Source: Candidatus Aenigmatarchaeota archaeon
GTDB taxonomy: Archaea > Aenigmatarchaeota > Aenigmatarchaeia > Aenigmatarchaeales > JACQIB01
Length of the DNA stretch: 13,409 nt
Direction of reading: 5' to 3'
NCBI GenBank assembly: GCA_038999215.1
Contig: JAWABM010000015.1
Location: 1-13,409 of the forward strand
The position numbers and the translations under genes are program-made. The notes under the pieces are model-generated. The model saw only the letters and a list, made by a program, of their open reading frames with translations. It had not been told where the DNA came from and did not search any database. Below, in pieces: positions 2,500 to 10,679 of this stretch (position 1 is its first letter; each line of letters starts with the position of its first letter).

Positions 2500-2541
2500 G
2501 ATAGGTCTGCAACTAATCTTAGTAAATTTCTGGTGAGACAG

Positions 2542-3162
2542 ATGGACGAAAAGAAGACAGGAACAACGACGGTCGGCATAATCTGCAAGGACGGGGTCCT
2601 GCTGGCGACCGAGCGGAAGGCCACGATAGGCTACATGATAGACTCGAAGGTCTCGAGGAAGGTCTACCAGCTGGACGACCACATAGGCATGACAATAGCC
2701 GGAAGCGTCGGCGACGCCCTGTCGCTGGTGCGGCTGCTCAAGGCGCAATTCAAGCTCTACAAGCTCGAGAGGGGTCCGATAACCATGAGGGCGGCGGCCA
2801 CGCTGCTGTCGAACATACTGCAGGGAAGCAAGTGGATGCCGTTCATGAACCAGCTCATACTGGCGGGCTACGACTCCAACGGGCCGGGGCTGTACTCGCT
2901 GGATCCGGTGGGCGGATGGTCGAACCAGGACAATTATTATTCAACAGGCTCAGGAAGCCCGTTCGCTTACGGTGTGCTCGAATCGGACTACAAGGAGGGC
3001 CTGTCGCTTGATGAAGGCATCGAGCTGGCGCTGAGGGCAATAAGGAGCGCCGTAGGGAGGGACATAGCGTCGGGCGGCAACGGCTTCATGGTCGCGCTCA
3101 TGACAAAGGACGGCTACAGGGAACTGAGCGAAGCGGAAATCAAGAAGCACATGAAGCAGTAA
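2542..3162 (+). CDS. psmB: 20S proteasome beta subunit
   Basis: Short propeptide MDEKKTG followed by catalytic TTTVG, plus the TGSGS motif and GRDIASG. Start set at ATG 2542 behind GGTGA. Confidence 0.97.
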   Translation: MDEKKTGTTTVGIICKDGVLLATERKATIGYMIDSKVSRKVYQLDDHIGMTIAGSVGDALSLVRLLKAQFKLYKLERGPITMRAAATLLSNILQGSKWMPFMNQLILAGYDSNGPGLYSLDPVGGWSNQDNYYSTGSGSPFAYGVLESDYKEGLSLDEGIELALRAIRSAVGRDIASGGNGFMVALMTKDGYRELSEAEIKKHMKQ

Positions 3163-3191
3163 GAGCGGGCATTCTCAAAAAGACTGATCGC

Positions 3192-5072
3192 ATGGTTGAA
3201 ATAAAGACATCGGAGCTATTCGAAAAGATAAAGCAAGGCCTGCCGGCGGACGCGCAGATATCGGACATAAGGTTCGAGGGCTGCGAGGTGGTCCTGTACA
3301 CGAAGAGCAGGGAATTCTTCACCTCCAATTCTGACGCGATAAAAGGCATGGTAGGCAGCCTCAAGAAAAGGATAATCCTCAGGCCCGACCCCTCTATATG
3401 CGCGGACCCCGAGGAAGCGAGAAAGGCGGTGGACGAGCTCGTTCCGAAAGAGGCCGGAGTGAAGGAGGTGCTGTTCGAGCCCGATTTCGGGATAATGACG
3501 GTAGAGGCCGACAAACCGGGCCTTGTGATAGGCAAGGGCGGGGAGCTGCTGCGGGAGATAAGGAAGAGGACGTGCTGGCTGCCGCACGTGAAGCGCTCGC
3601 CGGCGATACCGAACGAGATAATCAAGACCCTGAGGGAGCTGATATACAAGGAGAGCAGCTTCAGGAAGGAGTTCCTTGACAAGGTCGGCAGAAGCATACA
3701 TTCGGGATGGAAGCAGACCGACTGGGTCAGGCTCACGGCCCTTGGAGGATTCAGGGAGGTAGGCCGCTCGGCCGTTCTCCTGCAGACGCCCGAAAGCAGC
3801 GTGCTGCTGGACTGCGGCATAAAGCCGGGGAACAACGAGCTGCCCTACTTGAACATACCGGAGTTCGACGTAAAGAAGCTCAACGCTGTCGTGCTCACGC
3901 ACGCGCACATGGACCATGCCGGCGCGATACCGATGCTCTACGAGTACGGCTGCGAGGCGCCGCTATATTGCACGGTGCCGACGCGCGACCTGATGGTGCT
4001 GCTCTGCATGGACTCGCTCAACCTCATGAACAAGGAAGGAAGGCAGGCGCTCTATTCCACTAAGGGCATAAAGGAGGCAGTGAAGCGCTGCATAACGCTC
4101 GAATACGACGAGGTCTCGGACATAACGCCCGACATGAGGCTGACGCTGCTCAACAGCGGCCACATACTCGGTTCGGCGCTCGCGCACATACACGTGGGAG
4201 ACGGGCTGCACAACATACTCTACACCAGCGACATAAAGTTCGACAGGACGGCCCTGTACGAAGCGGCCAGCACGAACTTCGCACGCGCGGAAACGGTGAT
4301 AACAGAAAGCACGTACGGCCTTTCCACGGACGTGCTGCCGAGAAGGGACGAAGCCGAGGGCATGCTCACAGAAGTGGTGAAGAGGACCCTGAAGCGCGGA
4401 GGCAAGGTGCTCATACCGTCGTTCGCGGTCGAGCGCTCGCAGGACCTCCAGGTCATACTTGAGAAGAACGGAATAGAATCCACAATATACCTGGACGGCA
4501 TGGTCTGGGACGCCACGGCCATACACACCACGTATCCCGAATACATGAACAGGGACCTGCAGAAGCAGATACTCCAGCAGGGCAAGAACCCCTTCCTTTC
4601 CCCCGTATTCAAGAGGATAGGCAGCCAGGACGAGAGGCAGAAGGTGCTCTCCAGCCATGAGCCTTGCGTGATAATAGCGACGAGCGGAATGCTCATAGGA
4701 GGGCCCAGCGTGTGGTGGCTCAGGAACCTGGCGGAGGACAAGAAGAACACGGTGATTTTTGTCGGCTACCAGTCCGAGGGCTCGCTCGGCCGCAGGATAC
4801 AGAAGGGCTGGAAGGAGGTTCCGATGGAGCAGGGCGGCAGGAACGTGGCGGTGCCGGTTAACTGCGAGGTGGCAACCGTCGAGGGCCTGTCAGGGCACAG
4901 CGACAGGAAGCAGCTGGTAAATTACCTGACAAGGCTGAGGCAGCGCCCCGAGAGGATAATAGTCAACCACGGAGAGGAGCGCAAGTGTATCGAGCTGGCG
5001 AGGGACCTGCACAAGATAATGCGCGTGGAGACGCTGGCGCCCAAGCTCCTGGAAACGATAAGGCTCAAGTAA
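3192..5072 (+). CDS. fttA: beta-CASP ribonuclease aCPSF1 / transcription termination factor FttA
   Basis: N-terminal KH domains (PGLVIGKGG), LGGFREVGRS, HAHMDH, GHILGS, ESTYG, SGHSD and NHGE motifs. The adjacency to psmB is conserved in archaea. Confidence 0.96.
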   Translation: MVEIKTSELFEKIKQGLPADAQISDIRFEGCEVVLYTKSREFFTSNSDAIKGMVGSLKKRIILRPDPSICADPEEARKAVDELVPKEAGVKEVLFEPDFGIMTVEADKPGLVIGKGGELLREIRKRTCWLPHVKRSPAIPNEIIKTLRELIYKESSFRKEFLDKVGRSIHSGWKQTDWVRLTALGGFREVGRSAVLLQTPESSVLLDCGIKPGNNELPYLNIPEFDVKKLNAVVLTHAHMDHAGAIPMLYEYGCEAPLYCTVPTRDLMVLLCMDSLNLMNKEGRQALYSTKGIKEAVKRCITLEYDEVSDITPDMRLTLLNSGHILGSALAHIHVGDGLHNILYTSDIKFDRTALYEAASTNFARAETVITESTYGLSTDVLPRRDEAEGMLTEVVKRTLKRGGKVLIPSFAVERSQDLQVILEKNGIESTIYLDGMVWDATAIHTTYPEYMNRDLQKQILQQGKNPFLSPVFKRIGSQDERQKVLSSHEPCVIIATSGMLIGGPSVWWLRNLAEDKKNTVIFVGYQSEGSLGRRIQKGWKEVPMEQGGRNVAVPVNCEVATVEGLSGHSDRKQLVNYLTRLRQRPERIIVNHGEERKCIELARDLHKIMRVETLAPKLLETIRLK

Positions 5073-5450: not shown

Positions 5451-5529
5451 TGGTGGGCGGGAGGAGATTTGAACTCCTGACCTCTACGTTATCAGCGTAG
5501 CGCTGCTGACCAGGCTGAGCTACCCGCCC
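5451..5529 (-). tRNA. tRNA-Ile(GAU), CCA encoded
   Basis: Reverse complement has acceptor stem GGGCGGG/CCCGCCC, anticodon arm CTACG-CT-GAT-AA-CGTAG, T arm AGGAG-TTCAAAT-CTCCT and a terminal ACCA. Confidence 0.96.
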
Positions 5530-5554
5530 GCTAAACGAGAATATGGACGCGACA

Positions 5555-5563
5555 TTTATATAA
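5555..5563 (-). promoter_or_regulatory. TATA box for tRNA-Ile
   Basis: TTATATAAA on the minus strand 26-34 nt upstream of the tRNA 5' end, immediately after the tRNA-Ala CCA. Confidence 0.6.
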
Positions 5564-5565
5564 GT

Positions 5566-5640
5566 TGGTGGACCGGGTGGGATTCGAACCCACGAACTCT
5601 TGCTTGCGAAGCAAGCGTCATTCCACTAGACCACCGGCCC
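5566..5640 (-). tRNA. tRNA-Ala(CGC), CCA encoded
   Basis: Acceptor stem GGGCCGG/CCGGTCC with the G3:U70 Ala identity pair, anticodon arm CTTGC-TT-CGC-AA-GCAAG, T arm GTGGG-TTCGAAT-CCCAC and a terminal ACCA. Confidence 0.97.
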
Positions 5641-6852: not shown

Positions 6853-6860
6853 TTTAAATT
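6853..6860 (+). promoter_or_regulatory. TATA box for leaderless valS
   Basis: TTTAAATT preceded by AAAGG (BRE-like), starting 29 nt before ATG 6882. No RBS is present. Confidence 0.65.
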
Positions 6861-6881: not shown

Positions 6882-9212
6882 ATGGAAATGCCAGCGAGAT
6901 ACGACCCGAAGGAAGCCGAGCCCAGGCTGCAGAAATGGTGGGAGAAGGAGGGGCTGTACAAGTACGACCCGAAAAGCAAGAAGCCCGCCTACACGATAGA
7001 CACGCCGCCTCCCACGGTGTCAGGATTCATACACGTGGGGCACGTGCTCGGCTACACGACGGCCGAATTCGTCGCCAGGTTCTGGAGGATGAACGGCCAT
7101 AACGTATTCTATCCCATGGGGTTCGACGACAACGGCCTGGCGAGCGAGAGATATGTGGAGAAGAAAAGGGGGATAAGGGCAAGCGAGCTCCAGCGCGACA
7201 AGTTCGTCAATATATGCCTGGAGGAGACGGCCAAGGGAGGCCGGGAATTCAGGAACGTCTGGGAAAGGCTGGGGATATCGGTCGACTGGAGCCTGCTCTA
7301 TAGCACCATAAACCCGCTATGCCAGAGGATATCTCAGCGGTCGTTCCTGGACCTTTACAAGAAAGGAAGGGTATACCAGCAGGAAGGCCCGACAGTATGG
7401 TGCCCGGCATGCCAGACGGCCATAGCCCAGGCGGAGCTTGAGGACGCCAGAAGGACAACGAAGCTCACGACGATATCGTTCATGCTCAAGGACGGAAAGA
7501 AAATACAGATAGCGACAACGAGACCGGAGTTCCTTCCGGCCTGCGTCGCGATATTCGTCCATCCGGAAGACAAGCGCTACAAGGGCCTCGTTGGAAAGAA
7601 GGCGATAGTACCGCTTTTCGGGCAGGAGGTGGCGATAGCGACGGACGAGAAGGTCGACCCGGAGTTCGGGACGGGCATAGTGATGGTCTGCACTTTCGGG
7701 GACCGCACCGACGTGGAGTGGTGGCAGAAGCACAAGCTCCCGCTCAAGATAATACTCGACAAGAGCGGAAGGCTCACCGTCAAAGGCTACGAAGGAATGA
7801 GGCCGGAGGAGGCGCGGACTGCGGTCCTTGAGCAGCTGAAAAAGGAAGGGCTCGTGACCGAGCAAAAGGACCTTGAACAGACAGTGAACGTGCATGAGCG
7901 CTGCGGAACGCCGGTCGAGTTCTACGTTTCGCAGCAGTGGTACATCAGGGTCACAGACATGAAAGAGAAATGGCTGGAGCTGGGCGAGCAGATAAGATGG
8001 CATCCGGAGCACATGAAGGTCAGATACAGGCAATGGGTCGAGGGGCTCAATACTGACTGGTGCATATCCAGGCAGAGGTACTACGGGATACCTTTCCCTG
8101 TCTGGCACTGCAAGAAATGCGGGGCCGCGATTCTTGCGGACGAGAAGGAGCTGCCGATCGACCCGACTCTCGTGAAACGCAAGTGCCGCTGCGGAGCTGA
8201 AGCCGAGCCGGACAGGAACGTGATGGACACCTGGGCAACTTCGTCGCTCACGCCGCAGATAAACGCAAGATGGGGGGAGAAGGACGAGCGCCTGCGGCTG
8301 CCGCTTTCGCTGAGGCCGCAGGGCTACGAGATAATCAGGACATGGGCCTTCTACACGATTGTCAAGGCCTGGCTGCACAGCCAGAGCCTGCCGTGGAAGG
8401 ACGTGATGATCAACGGGATGGGGCTGGATCCCAAAGGCAGGGCCATGCACAAGTCAAAGGGAAACGTGATCGACCCCCTGCCGCTGATAGGCAAGTACTG
8501 CGCGGACGCCCTGCGCTACTGGGCAGCGTCGGCGACGCTAGGGAACGACATGCCCTACCAGGAGAAGGACGTGGCCACCGGCCAGAAGCTCATAACGAAG
8601 CTGTGGAACGCTTCGCGCTTCGCAAGCATGCACATCAAGGGCAGGCCGAAAAAGCCGAAGGAGCTCAGGCCCATGGACAAGTGGCTGCTCGGCAAGCTTT
8701 CCGCGGTAATAACCGAGTCCACCGAAGCGATGAAGTGCTATAACTATGCCCGCGCGAAGGCGGCGGCGGACGTGTTCTTCTGGCACACGTTCTGCGACAA
8801 CTACCTGGAGTTCGTGAAGCACAGGATTTACGACAAGCAGGACGAATCGGCGAGCTACACGCTCTACGTCGCGCTCCTGTCGATGATAAAGATGCTCGCA
8901 CCCTTCGTGCCGCACGTCACCGAGGAAATATACCGGCATCTGTTCAAAGAGCACGAGGGTGACAAATCAGTTCACGTTTCTGCCTGGCCGACGGCAGATT
9001 GGGAGTTCCCGACGGAGGAAGGCGACAAGGCGGCAGCGGCGATAGCGGCCATAAGGCAGTGGAAGCACGACCAGAAGCTGCCGCTGAACGCGGAGCTGAA
9101 GAAGGTGACCCTGGCGGAAGGCAGCGTCGCGAAGGAGTTTTTGGACGATGTCCGCGGCGCCATGAAGGTGAAGGAAGTCGCTTTCGGCAGGGAGTTCTCC
9201 GCTCAAGCATAG
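6882..9212 (+). CDS. valS: Valine--tRNA ligase (archaeal type)
   Basis: IDTPPPTVSG, HVGH (HIGH), GFDDNG, ATTRPE, DWCISRQR, MDTWATSS and AMHKS (KMSKS-equivalent). ATG 6882 is preferred over TTG 6876. Confidence 0.96.
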   Translation: MEMPARYDPKEAEPRLQKWWEKEGLYKYDPKSKKPAYTIDTPPPTVSGFIHVGHVLGYTTAEFVARFWRMNGHNVFYPMGFDDNGLASERYVEKKRGIRASELQRDKFVNICLEETAKGGREFRNVWERLGISVDWSLLYSTINPLCQRISQRSFLDLYKKGRVYQQEGPTVWCPACQTAIAQAELEDARRTTKLTTISFMLKDGKKIQIATTRPEFLPACVAIFVHPEDKRYKGLVGKKAIVPLFGQEVAIATDEKVDPEFGTGIVMVCTFGDRTDVEWWQKHKLPLKIILDKSGRLTVKGYEGMRPEEARTAVLEQLKKEGLVTEQKDLEQTVNVHERCGTPVEFYVSQQWYIRVTDMKEKWLELGEQIRWHPEHMKVRYRQWVEGLNTDWCISRQRYYGIPFPVWHCKKCGAAILADEKELPIDPTLVKRKCRCGAEAEPDRNVMDTWATSSLTPQINARWGEKDERLRLPLSLRPQGYEIIRTWAFYTIVKAWLHSQSLPWKDVMINGMGLDPKGRAMHKSKGNVIDPLPLIGKYCADALRYWAASATLGNDMPYQEKDVATGQKLITKLWNASRFASMHIKGRPKKPKELRPMDKWLLGKLSAVITESTEAMKCYNYARAKAAADVFFWHTFCDNYLEFVKHRIYDKQDESASYTLYVALLSMIKMLAPFVPHVTEEIYRHLFKEHEGDKSVHVSAWPTADWEFPTEEGDKAAAAIAAIRQWKHDQKLPLNAELKKVTLAEGSVAKEFLDDVRGAMKVKEVAFGREFSAQA

Positions 9213-9218
9213 GATAGA

Positions 9219-9249
9219 TTTATATACTACTTAACAGTAATAATTATTA
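9219..9249 (+). promoter_or_regulatory. Promoter copy 1 (TATA plus shared downstream motif)
   Basis: TTTATATACTACTTAACAGTAATAATTATTA is 26/31 identical to 10712-10742. Confidence 0.7.
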
Positions 9250-9386
9250 TGGCACGTGCCGCAGAATCCGACCTCATTATGGACATAGCAGCCTACAGGA
9301 GGCTGTTCGAGAAGCAGGCAAAGGAGAGGAAGAAGGACAAGAGGGCAGTGGGGCCCTACGACAAGTATATCAGCGCATACCAGTGA
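9249..9386 (+). CDS. Small hypothetical protein, 45 aa (MARAAESDLIMDIAAYRRLFEKQAKERKKDKRAVGPYDKYISAYQ)
   Basis: ATG lies 30 nt from the TATA start, codon usage is genome-typical (AGG, ATA, AAG, GAG), and the ORF fills the valS-aRF1 gap. Confidence 0.7.
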   Translation: MARAAESDLIMDIAAYRRLFEKQAKERKKDKRAVGPYDKYISAYQ

Positions 9387-9395
9387 CTGAATTCT

Positions 9396-9403
9396 TTTAA
9401 ATA
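9396..9403 (+). promoter_or_regulatory. TATA box for the aRF1 transcript
   Basis: TTTAAATA starting 30 nt before ATG 9426. Confidence 0.65.
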
Positions 9404-9425
9404 CCCCGGACGCGATAAAAGTCCT

Positions 9426-9449
9426 ATGCCGAACGGAAAGCAGTTCTGA
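9426..9449 (+). promoter_or_regulatory. In-frame upstream ORF MPNGKQF-UGA ahead of aRF1
   Basis: ATG CCG AAC GGA AAG CAG TTC TGA C, then CGC AAT TCT TCC AGC GTG AGC TCT ATG continues in frame into aRF1 with no further stop. Confidence 0.55.
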
Positions 9450-9473
9450 CGCAATTCTTCCAGCGTGAGCTCT

Positions 9474-10679
9474 ATGACAGAAGACAACATAAAAAAGCTG
9501 AGAAAACTCATCGAGGAGCTCCAGGGCTTCCGCGGCAGGCATACGGAGCTAGTCTCAGTCTATGTTCCGGCGGGCTACAGGCTCGTCGAAGTTATAAACC
9601 AGCTGAAGCAGGAGCAGGGCACTGCCGAGAACATAAAGAGCAAGACCACGCGCAAGAACGTCGTGGACGCCCTGGAAAGGGCGGTGCAGTACATGAAGAC
9701 CTTCAAGGACACGCCGAAGAACGGGCTCGTGGTGTTCAGCGGGAACGTGTCGGAGCACGAAGGCGTCAGTGACATAAGGGTCTGGGGCATAGAGCCGCCT
9801 GAACCCTTGAAAGTGAAGATGTACTGGTGCGGCCAGACCTTCAGGCTCGAGCCGCTGCTGGACATGGTCAAGGAGAAGGAGGTGTACGGGCTCGTCGTCA
9901 TGGACATAGGCGAGGCCACTATAGGCATCCTCAGGGGCAAGACGATACAGGTCCTCAGGCACATGGACTCGATAGTCCCGGGAAAGACATCCAAGGGAGG
10001 CCAGTCCGCACAGAGGTACGAGCGCGTGCGCGAGGGCCTGATAAACGACTTTTTCAAGATGGTCGCGGAAGCCGTAAAGGCCATGAACAGCGACGAGGTC
10101 AAGGGAATAATCATAGGAGGCCCTGGACCCGGGAAGGAGGACTTCATGCGCGGCGAATACCTGCAGACCGCGATCAAGAACAAGGTGCTCGGGATAAGGA
10201 GCACGGGATATGCCGACGAGTCGGGGCTGCACGAGCTGCTTGAAAGGAGCAGGGACCTGCTGGCAGAGGCGGCGTTCACGAAGGAGAAGGATCTGCTCAA
10301 GAAATTCTTCGAGCAGCTGCAGAAGGACACGGGCCTGGTGACCTACGGGCTGAACTTCGTGCTCAAGGCGCTGGAAGCGGGCGCCGTCAGCGTATTGCTG
10401 ATAAGCGAGGGGCTGGACATCATAGAGGCGGAGCTGCTGTGCAGCTGCGGCAATTCGTACAAGAAGTTCATAAAGAGGGAGAAACTTGCGAGCGAGAGGT
10501 GCCCCAAGTGCGGAGGGCCTGTCGGCATCGTGGGCGAAAGGGGCATCGAAGAGGCGATGGAGGAGATGGCTAAGGCATCCGGCGCAAAAATAGAGATGAT
10601 ATCCAAAGAGACCAAGGAGGGCGAGCAGCTGGCAGCCATAGGCGGGATAGCGGCCTTCCTCAGGTACCGCCTGGAATAA
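9474..10679 (+). CDS. prf1: Peptide chain release factor aRF1
   Basis: GRHTELVS, NIKS, YWCGQTF (YxCxxxF), GGQSAQRY, a Cys4 Zn mini-domain (CSCG...CPKCG) and the C-terminal GGIAAFLRY. Confidence 0.97.
   Translation: MTEDNIKKLRKLIEELQGFRGRHTELVSVYVPAGYRLVEVINQLKQEQGTAENIKSKTTRKNVVDALERAVQYMKTFKDTPKNGLVVFSGNVSEHEGVSDIRVWGIEPPEPLKVKMYWCGQTFRLEPLLDMVKEKEVYGLVVMDIGEATIGILRGKTIQVLRHMDSIVPGKTSKGGQSAQRYERVREGLINDFFKMVAEAVKAMNSDEVKGIIIGGPGPGKEDFMRGEYLQTAIKNKVLGIRSTGYADESGLHELLERSRDLLAEAAFTKEKDLLKKFFEQLQKDTGLVTYGLNFVLKALEAGAVSVLLISEGLDIIEAELLCSCGNSYKKFIKREKLASERCPKCGGPVGIVGERGIEEAMEEMAKASGAKIEMISKETKEGEQLAAIGGIAAFLRYRLE

Follow-up and report, generated by a model that had tools for sequence, protein, structure and literature searches.

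A tiny upstream ORF ending in a leaky stop before the aRF1 gene of Aenigmatarchaeota, by which the release factor probably controls its own production

The locus described here raises the question whether an archaeal class-I release factor can sense its own abundance through a stop codon placed in front of its gene. In the window (the whole stretch of 13,409 nucleotides that was analysed, from contig JAWABM010000015.1 of a Candidatus Aenigmatarchaeota archaeon), the gene for aRF1 follows a very short upstream open reading frame (uORF), and a comparison of leaders within the phylum suggests that such a uORF, with its leaky stop, probably allows aRF1 to control its own production. Sources given by PMC number or DOI are cited for those portions of their text that were available.

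Direct reading of the window confirmed the arrangement that the earlier note had described: TTTAAATA begins at 9396, ATG 9426 lies 30 nt downstream, and the frame opened there encodes MPNGKQF, meets TTC-TGA-C at 9444-9450, with the stop 24 nt 5' of the aRF1 AUG, and continues in frame through RNSSSVSS into the aRF1 ATG at 9474 (Table 1). The uORF has the same length and position in genome G001 (MQTKRKL) and in the independent contig L385 (MQDGRAF), both of which also keep its TATA box. Read in the +1 frame relative to the uORF, the TGA inside the Shine-Dalgarno (SD) sequence (9466-9468) is a stop codon. The downstream product scored 451.6 bits against TIGR03676 (cut-off 234.7), which identifies it as a class-I release factor, and it is the sole copy above the cut-off in this genome.

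Table 1. Annotated elements of the aRF1 leader and adjoining genes, in coordinates of the window
Feature	Position	Strand	Basis
Leaderless 45-aa ORF with its own TATA box (9219)	9249..9386	+	sequence
TATA box of the predicted leaderless uORF-aRF1 transcript	9396..9403	+	sequence; 30 nt spacing equals the genome-wide peak
uORF, 7 codons (MPNGKQF) and TGA	9426..9449	+	sequence; relatives
Putative sensor stop, TGA followed by C	9447..9450	+	conserved stop context
Stop-anchored pyrimidine tract (+9 to +15)	9455..9461	+	conserved positions in relatives
Shine-Dalgarno GTGA, 5 nt 5' of the aRF1 ATG	9465..9468	+	complementary to the 3' end of the genome's 16S rRNA
aRF1 release factor, 401 aa	9474..10679	+	TIGR03676; NIKS, YxCxxxF and GGQ motifs in the translation

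The 45-aa ORF has no NCBIfam match, and a C-terminus similar to its own is found upstream in G001 and L385. In transcripts reading through from it the uORF ATG would have no SD sequence in front of it, and such transcripts may have a role in the proposed switch. Its end (9384-9397) reads TGA-C followed by AATTCTT and resembles the end of the uORF (9447-9459), a likeness that may reflect overlap with the promoter or an old duplication. Elsewhere in the window a proteasome beta subunit and aCPSF1 (FttA, at 3192-5072) are encoded within 2533-5072, a linkage common in archaea, and genes for tRNA-Ile and tRNA-Ala lie at 5451-5640.

Statistics for the window's own genome were obtained from 605 genes predicted with a simple in-house gene caller. 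The distances from TATA box to ATG are commonest at 29-30 nt and form a minor second group at 37-41 nt, so ATG 9426 lies where a leaderless start is expected. The earlier note had compared this spacing with that of valS, the 45-aa ORF and the NYN gene, and the comparison holds, with 29 nt for valS (TATA-like element at 6853 and ATG at 6882, by eye), 30 nt for the 45-aa ORF (9219 to 9249) and 29-30 nt for the NYN gene. Its description of GTGA as a weak ribosome-binding site has to be revised: GTGA pairs over 4 bp with the 16S 3' end of the same genome, and GTGA, GGTG or GGTGA precedes 164 of the 605 starts, which makes it an ordinary SD sequence here. Any uORF of 5-16 codons ending 18-33 nt upstream precedes 18 of the 585 genes with enough upstream sequence; such uORFs end in TGA-C or TAG-C in front of three, and a TATA box is present as well only in front of aRF1. 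TGA-C closes only 34 of the 605 genes. Reassignment of UGA to tryptophan or selenocysteine was rejected, as TGA ends 309 of the 605 genes; no tRNA with a UCA anticodon occurs among the 25 tRNAs found, an incomplete set that also lacks tRNA-Trp and tRNA-Cys.

Among 371 genomes of the phylum searched, 335 gave a match, and the 5' end of aRF1 was examined in 264, of which 263 were usable; a scan of genomes with a single protein gave one locus only. Two layouts are distinguished: design I, a uORF with a (presumably) leaky stop before aRF1, and design II, in which an SD sequence, AUU and a stop precede an aRF1 reading frame in +1. The uORF screen, which accepted any short ORF ending 15-36 nt 5' of aRF1 in the 210 genomes with a normal start, matched 48 genomes, and in families f1, f3, f5, f10 and f26 one common layout is present in 19 of the 20 matched genomes. 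Design I is found in 20 of the 263 genomes (13 genera, 5 families) and on two metagenome contigs. Within the window's own order it occurs in 16 of 38 genomes, the remaining 22 including congeners of carriers. One screen match (G025, with TAA, inside the upstream gene) was excluded from design I, and the locus of G267 is incomplete. G017 combines the layout with an inserted 17-codon ORF ending in TGATG on the aRF1 start, an overlap which indicates that a coupled path to aRF1 is kept.

Since the group was first recognised by eye, these counts are partly circular, and the family-level screen and a metagenome pattern that omits the stop served as checks. Among the matches listed for that pattern (at least 118 loci) two are aRF1 loci, and both have a uORF that ends in TGA-C, in frame, at gaps of 24 and 21 nt. 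Contig L385 has an aRF1 that is 90% identical, a uORF with 3 of 7 residues identical and the same TTC-TGA-C. The design I element is real and conserved. Contig L293, labelled Thorarchaeota, also carries design I with a leader nearly equal to that of G039, and is likely a misbinned Aenigmatarchaeota contig.

Several further leaders deserve mention. L293 and L548 (G373, Thorarchaeota label) and L342 (Micrarchaeota label, with the leader of G067) are Aenigmatarchaeota-type aRF1 loci, which likely reflects misbinning or old labels. G002 and G006 (L010, L086) have the design I spacer and SD sequence but lack a uORF, and their TATA box lies 40 nt 5' of aRF1, which likely reflects a loss or the ancestral state. 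In G015, G029, G032, G035 and G036 a long upstream gene ends 1-9 nt short of the aRF1 start. In family f21 (G184, locus L184; G193, L258; G195, L251) short ORFs or bare stops ending in TGA-C or TAG-C, accompanied by a pyrimidine tract, stand 27-33 nt ahead of aRF1 and may represent another form of design I, and in family f35 (G264-G266; L248, L149, L179) AAT/AAC-TGA-C and a pyrimidine tract lie 21-50 nt before aRF1 with no in-frame ATG nearby, where they may be the end of the upstream gene.

Among 87 outgroup loci, drawn from the phyla to which a Woesearchaeota genome, a genome labelled Thorarchaeota and a Thermococcus genome belong, neither design turned up. The automatic uORF test applied to them required an ATG and would have missed relatives of the misbinned contig only where these differed from it; the misbinned L548, viewed by eye, went unflagged, either because its upstream frame is little closed within the limits of the test or because the locus is incomplete. 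None of 42 pattern matches in viral contigs is a relative of aRF1, and apparent internal stops in two Asgard aRF1 genes turned out to be normal terminal stops. A FastTree tree built from 263 short fragments of aRF1 (70-170 aa) lacks the strength for counting how often either design arose; it shows only a patchy spread of each, with no genome carrying the two together.

In the 20 design I genomes the stop is TGA in 17, TAG in three and TAA in none (TGA-C 17, TAG-C 2, TAG-A 1; +4 C in 19 of 20), while ordinary stops near aRF1 in 13 carrier genomes are TAA in 32 of 47 cases and have C as the next base in 4 of 47. The final sense codon of the uORF encodes Asn, Glu or Asp in 16 of 19 loci, whereas such a codon precedes 3 of 51 ordinary stops; in the window the residue is Phe. 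Downstream of the stop, +9 is T in 19/19 loci and +10 to +12 are always pyrimidines; the C of the tract falls at +10 to +14 counted from the stop (sd 1.0) and at -13 to -24 counted from the AUG (sd 2.7), and this smaller spread ties the tract to the stop rather than to the AUG. The uORFs are 7-16 codons long across the 19 loci. Their start signals are a TATA-like element 26-30 nt upstream in seven loci, or one 34-38 nt upstream together with an SD-like sequence in nine, three loci fitting neither cleanly. The gaps from stop to AUG are 20, 21 (five loci), 23 (five), 24 (four), 25 (two), 27 and 30 nt, with no gap of 22 nt.

A conserved arrest peptide was rejected, as the uORF peptides diverge and show no conservation across design I loci. 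Nor was a hairpin hiding the SD sequence accepted as conserved: pairing between the tract and the opening codons of aRF1 occurs in some folds, yet per-sequence folds compared with shuffles gave z from -2.4 to +2.1, mostly near 0 and not consistently negative. The leader has no Rfam match at E<=1. The idea that the tract is a relic of a transcription start region fits G002 and G006 and does not fit the loci in which it stands at a fixed distance from the stop.

Conservation in relatives, which the earlier note had named as a check of its model, came out divided: the uORF, its start signals, the non-UAA stop and the +4 C are kept, and the reading frame is not. The uORF frame runs open into aRF1 in 9 of 19 loci (and in L385 and L391) and does not in the other 10; by genus the in-frame open layout occurs in 7 of 13, against a background of 17%. 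An aRF1 extended at the N-terminus, by 16 residues in the window as the earlier note proposed, cannot then be the general output. Extension itself is probably tolerated, since natural aRF1 starts lie 6-19 codons further upstream in 18 of 210 genomes. At the other 10 loci a ribosome reading through the stop would meet a second one at -13 to +5 of the aRF1 AUG in 9 of 10 cases; in G027 it would run to +22. Fusion or a stop within -13 to +5 is thus the outcome at 18/19 loci and, taking one genome per genus, in 13/13 genera; of 2090 start points placed 20-30 nt upstream in other aRF1 leaders, 48% have this outcome. The comparison lends only moderate support, because the range was chosen after seeing the data, kin are not independent, a TGA is already present within the SD sequence, and the two frames left unused at these loci likewise give a fusion or near stop in 28 of 38 cases.

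Design II, present in 53 of 263 genomes, lacks an ATG for aRF1 altogether; an SD sequence is followed by ATT and a stop, and aRF1 is open in +1 from TTT. It accounts for 13/13 genomes of family f12, 28/56 of f15, 9/13 of f16 and one each of f14, f34 and f39. No in-frame ATG, GTG or TTG exists in 44 of the 53 aRF1 frames, and none has an ATG. The A before TTT and the stop that follows (TAA 31, TAG 21, TGA 1) are set by the definition of the motif (at ATG-start genes the base at -1 is A in 47/210 and the second codon begins with AA, AG or GA in 94/210); the informative point is that no start-less gene escapes it, as 44/44 genomes lacking any in-frame ATG, GTG or TTG carry the motif. The +4 base is C in 40/53 loci, the ratio AAC:AAT is 20:2 at the site against 110:142 inside the same genes, and the spacing from SD to ATT is 5 nt in 40/42 scorable loci against 70/128 normal starts. 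In most loci a GTG within the SD sequence could open a 4-codon mini-ORF; 12 of the 53 have no ATG, GTG or TTG within 15 codons upstream in the frame of the mini-ORF, and in G139 a stop directly precedes ATT, which favours initiation at AUU followed by a +1 slip. Ten of 63 automatic hits (G119, G126, G134, G170, G217, G243, G245, G253, G290, G351) were dropped by eye as chance matches, since each has an ordinary in-frame start closer to the conserved region. The motif as a general habit of starting genes was rejected, since among other matches (20 of 51, in 5 genomes) none stands before a +1 ORF longer than 53 codons.

Examples of design II are L163 (G060), L177 (G050), L070 (G157) and L199 (G338), and also L301, L309, L310 and L321. 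G119 has TTG at the place of the motif, one base away from it, G091 has ATG where its congeners carry the motif, and in G279 (L211) an ACG preceded by a good SD sequence may be the aRF1 start. In families f12, f13, f15, f16, f27 and f35-f39 the GGQ motif of aRF1 reads GGW (39 cases), GGM (14) or GGY (1), 54 of 105 scored, with SQ following the motif in the cases viewed; all scored design II families fall within this group. Intein-like inserts (C...HN, about 140 to more than 500 aa) directly follow GGx of the catalytic loop in 17 of 105 aRF1 proteins (L039 of G010, L043, L045, L048, L050, L055-L057, L167, L175, L185, L190, L200, L204, L209-L211), and similar long open frames occur in four Nanobdellota genomes.

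The kept uORF, its start signals and stop context, together with design II in 53 genomes, point to selection for expression of aRF1 gated by a stop codon. We consider the chances about even that design I is a negative-feedback switch working by readthrough of the uORF stop, and somewhat less than even that the phylum has two mutually exclusive stop-sensing designs, I acting by leaky-stop readthrough (with fusion or reinitiation at a second stop) and II by a +1 slip from AUU before the first peptide bond. Ribosomes would start at the uORF and reach a stop that is poorly terminated (UGA or UAG, +4 C, pyrimidines at +9 to +12). When aRF1 is ample, termination would occur 20-30 nt 5' of the aRF1 AUG, a distance too great for reinitiation, and the ribosomes would be lost; when it is scarce, a near-cognate tRNA would read the stop and the ribosome would reach aRF1. 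In the window's genome and eight others this would yield an in-frame fusion, and at most other loci the ribosome would halt at the second stop beside the AUG and reinitiate on the SD sequence. In Haloferax a gap of 13-14 nt keeps 40-60% of reinitiation and one of 22-23 nt abolishes it (PMC10666635), so with gaps of 20-30 nt a ribosome terminating at the uORF stop should not make aRF1. Direct termination-reinitiation at that stop, the alternative offered in the earlier note, is unlikely for the same reason, and the part played by the SD sequence in archaeal coupling varies by gene (PMC6728339). The rules for leaky contexts come from eukaryotes and bacteria rather than from aRF1 (PMC13517186). 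In mammals readthrough can respond to mRNA as far as +11 or +12, a stretch still inside the entry channel (PMC13517186). From the leaders we infer translation of the uORF, readthrough, output that rises as aRF1 falls and low independent initiation at the AUG. The last point matters, as the in-frame loci keep the AUG and SD sequence of aRF1, which implies independent initiation that could swamp the feedback. A ribosome waiting at the uORF stop would also block the aRF1 SD sequence, with the wrong sign for feedback.

The free frame and the kept SD and AUG find a ready account in stop-sensing attenuation, which resembles tnaC: fast termination would free a U-rich tract on which aCPSF1/FttA would cut the nascent RNA before aRF1 is transcribed, and with scarce aRF1 the ribosome would wait on the stop, cover the tract and let the full mRNA be translated from its own SD and AUG. 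This too would be negative feedback, independent of frame and without readthrough, and we regard it as unlikely, if well short of negligible. It fits a tract anchored to the stop and rich in T (mean 6.1 in +5 to +13 of design I against 3.4 at 51 ordinary stops), and a nuclease encoded in this very window that favours U-rich RNA and that a ribosome, by one proposal, would exclude (PMC11616081; PMC13681488); that exclusion is, however, a hypothesis in its source (PMC11616081), the window's own tract is among the least T-rich (4 T in those nine positions, unremarkable for its genome), only 24 nt separate stop and next start, neither the missing 22-nt gaps nor the overlap in G017 are explained, and conserved alternative structures (in per-sequence folds), an Rfam match and an arrest peptide are all missing. 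The waiting ribosome might instead slip by +1 (or -1) at the stop as in prfB, stop at the TGA of the SD sequence and reinitiate; weak stops can feed readthrough and slippage alike (PMC9841425), G001 has CTT-TGA-C, the prfB shift site (PMC5009743), the +1 frame ends at -8 or -11 in 9/9 in-frame loci and coincides with that of aRF1 in G230 and G231, and design II needs +1. Since the last codon is mostly one for Asn, Glu or Asp, which offers no +1 re-pairing, and since +1 reaches aRF1 or a near stop in 15/19 loci against 18/19 for readthrough, we judge slippage quite improbable as the main route. Taking readthrough, attenuation and slippage together, some form of stop-sensing feedback at aRF1 is nonetheless strongly favoured by these sequence patterns.

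Other explanations involve no feedback. The uORF could be a fixed dampener whose translation occludes the aRF1 SD sequence, at a constant rate or with general translation load, as the short gap that puts a terminating ribosome beside the SD, the kept SD and AUG, and the patchy distribution with congeners lacking the uORF would allow; such a device would work without a non-UAA stop, a +4 C or a tract tied to the stop, each of which is strongly kept, and the gene is the release factor itself, with a second stop-gated design in existence, so that we find it improbable. A uORF arisen by chance, as the earlier note allowed, is hardly credible, and the same holds for an aRF1 with a longer N-terminus that is broken up by a sequencing error. 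uORFs are indeed common, with 29 matches in 28 genomes of other families, but those mostly end in TAA (19/29) and in TGA-C or TAG-C in only 4/29, and the arrangement seen here is unique among 585 genes and recurs in 13 genera and two independent contigs.

Design I works like release-factor autoregulation and is not a member of the prfB type. In plants the feedback on eRF1 reportedly acts at the gene's own terminal stop. Like the readthrough model preferred here, it is negative feedback on a class-I release factor via readthrough, and it works with nonsense-mediated decay (PMC5397192), whereas the design I sensor is 5' of the gene. Bacterial prfB (RF2) shares with design I a short ORF ending in UGA(C) early in the release-factor mRNA and the expectation that shortage of the factor raises its own synthesis (PMC5009743); the UGA-C context is found in 17 of 20 design I genomes, and design II resembles prfB in a main ORF in +1, without ATG, GTG or TTG of its own in 44/53. 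Unlike prfB, design I has no fixed +1 frame (+1 in 2/19 loci, frame 0 in the window), no conserved CUU-U shift site (CTT in 1/19) and no SD-like motif before the stop (by eye), its aRF1 keeps its own AUG and SD, and the protein family is unrelated. In-frame readthrough was once proposed for RF2 and found in no bacterial release-factor gene, as far as the available text goes (PMC5009743); nine design I loci show this layout. In Mimivirus R726 and Megavirus mg280 a gene of the aRF1/eRF1 family is likewise gated by stops, including readthrough, but those stops lie inside conserved coding sequence and both must be bypassed, while the design I stop ends a dispensable uORF (PMC3521657). The second stops of design I (-13 to +5) fall in the permissive range of archaeal termination-reinitiation, which the portions available describe as constitutive coupling of gene pairs and not as a regulated step after readthrough (PMC6728339, PMC10666635).

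The earlier note knew of no such mechanism for aRF1, and our reading of the literature agrees: no description of aRF1 autoregulation was found in the open-access literature searched. Such autoregulation was called absent from archaeal homologues in 2012 (PMC3521657, available portion), and neither aRF1 in the available text of a 2021 review of archaeal recoding (PMC8211752) nor archaea in that of a preprint on the start-stop element (10.1101/2021.07.26.453809) is mentioned.

Known cases of release-factor feedback come from bacteria, plants and giant viruses, and an archaeal case was not found described; designs I and II would, if the reading is true, be the first archaeal feedback loops of this kind, design I the first cellular case of the in-frame readthrough layout proposed for RF2, and design II a frameshift at the initiation codon. 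They add candidate cases to the short list of archaeal recoding and supply naturally occurring examples from which contexts of weak termination on the archaeal ribosome can be defined, in leaders of about 100 nt that are portable into Haloferax, Thermococcus or Methanococcus reporters. For annotation, the start of aRF1 is likely misplaced in about a fifth of the phylum (53/263). Two stop-gated designs at one gene within one phylum suggest strong selection for a steady level of aRF1.
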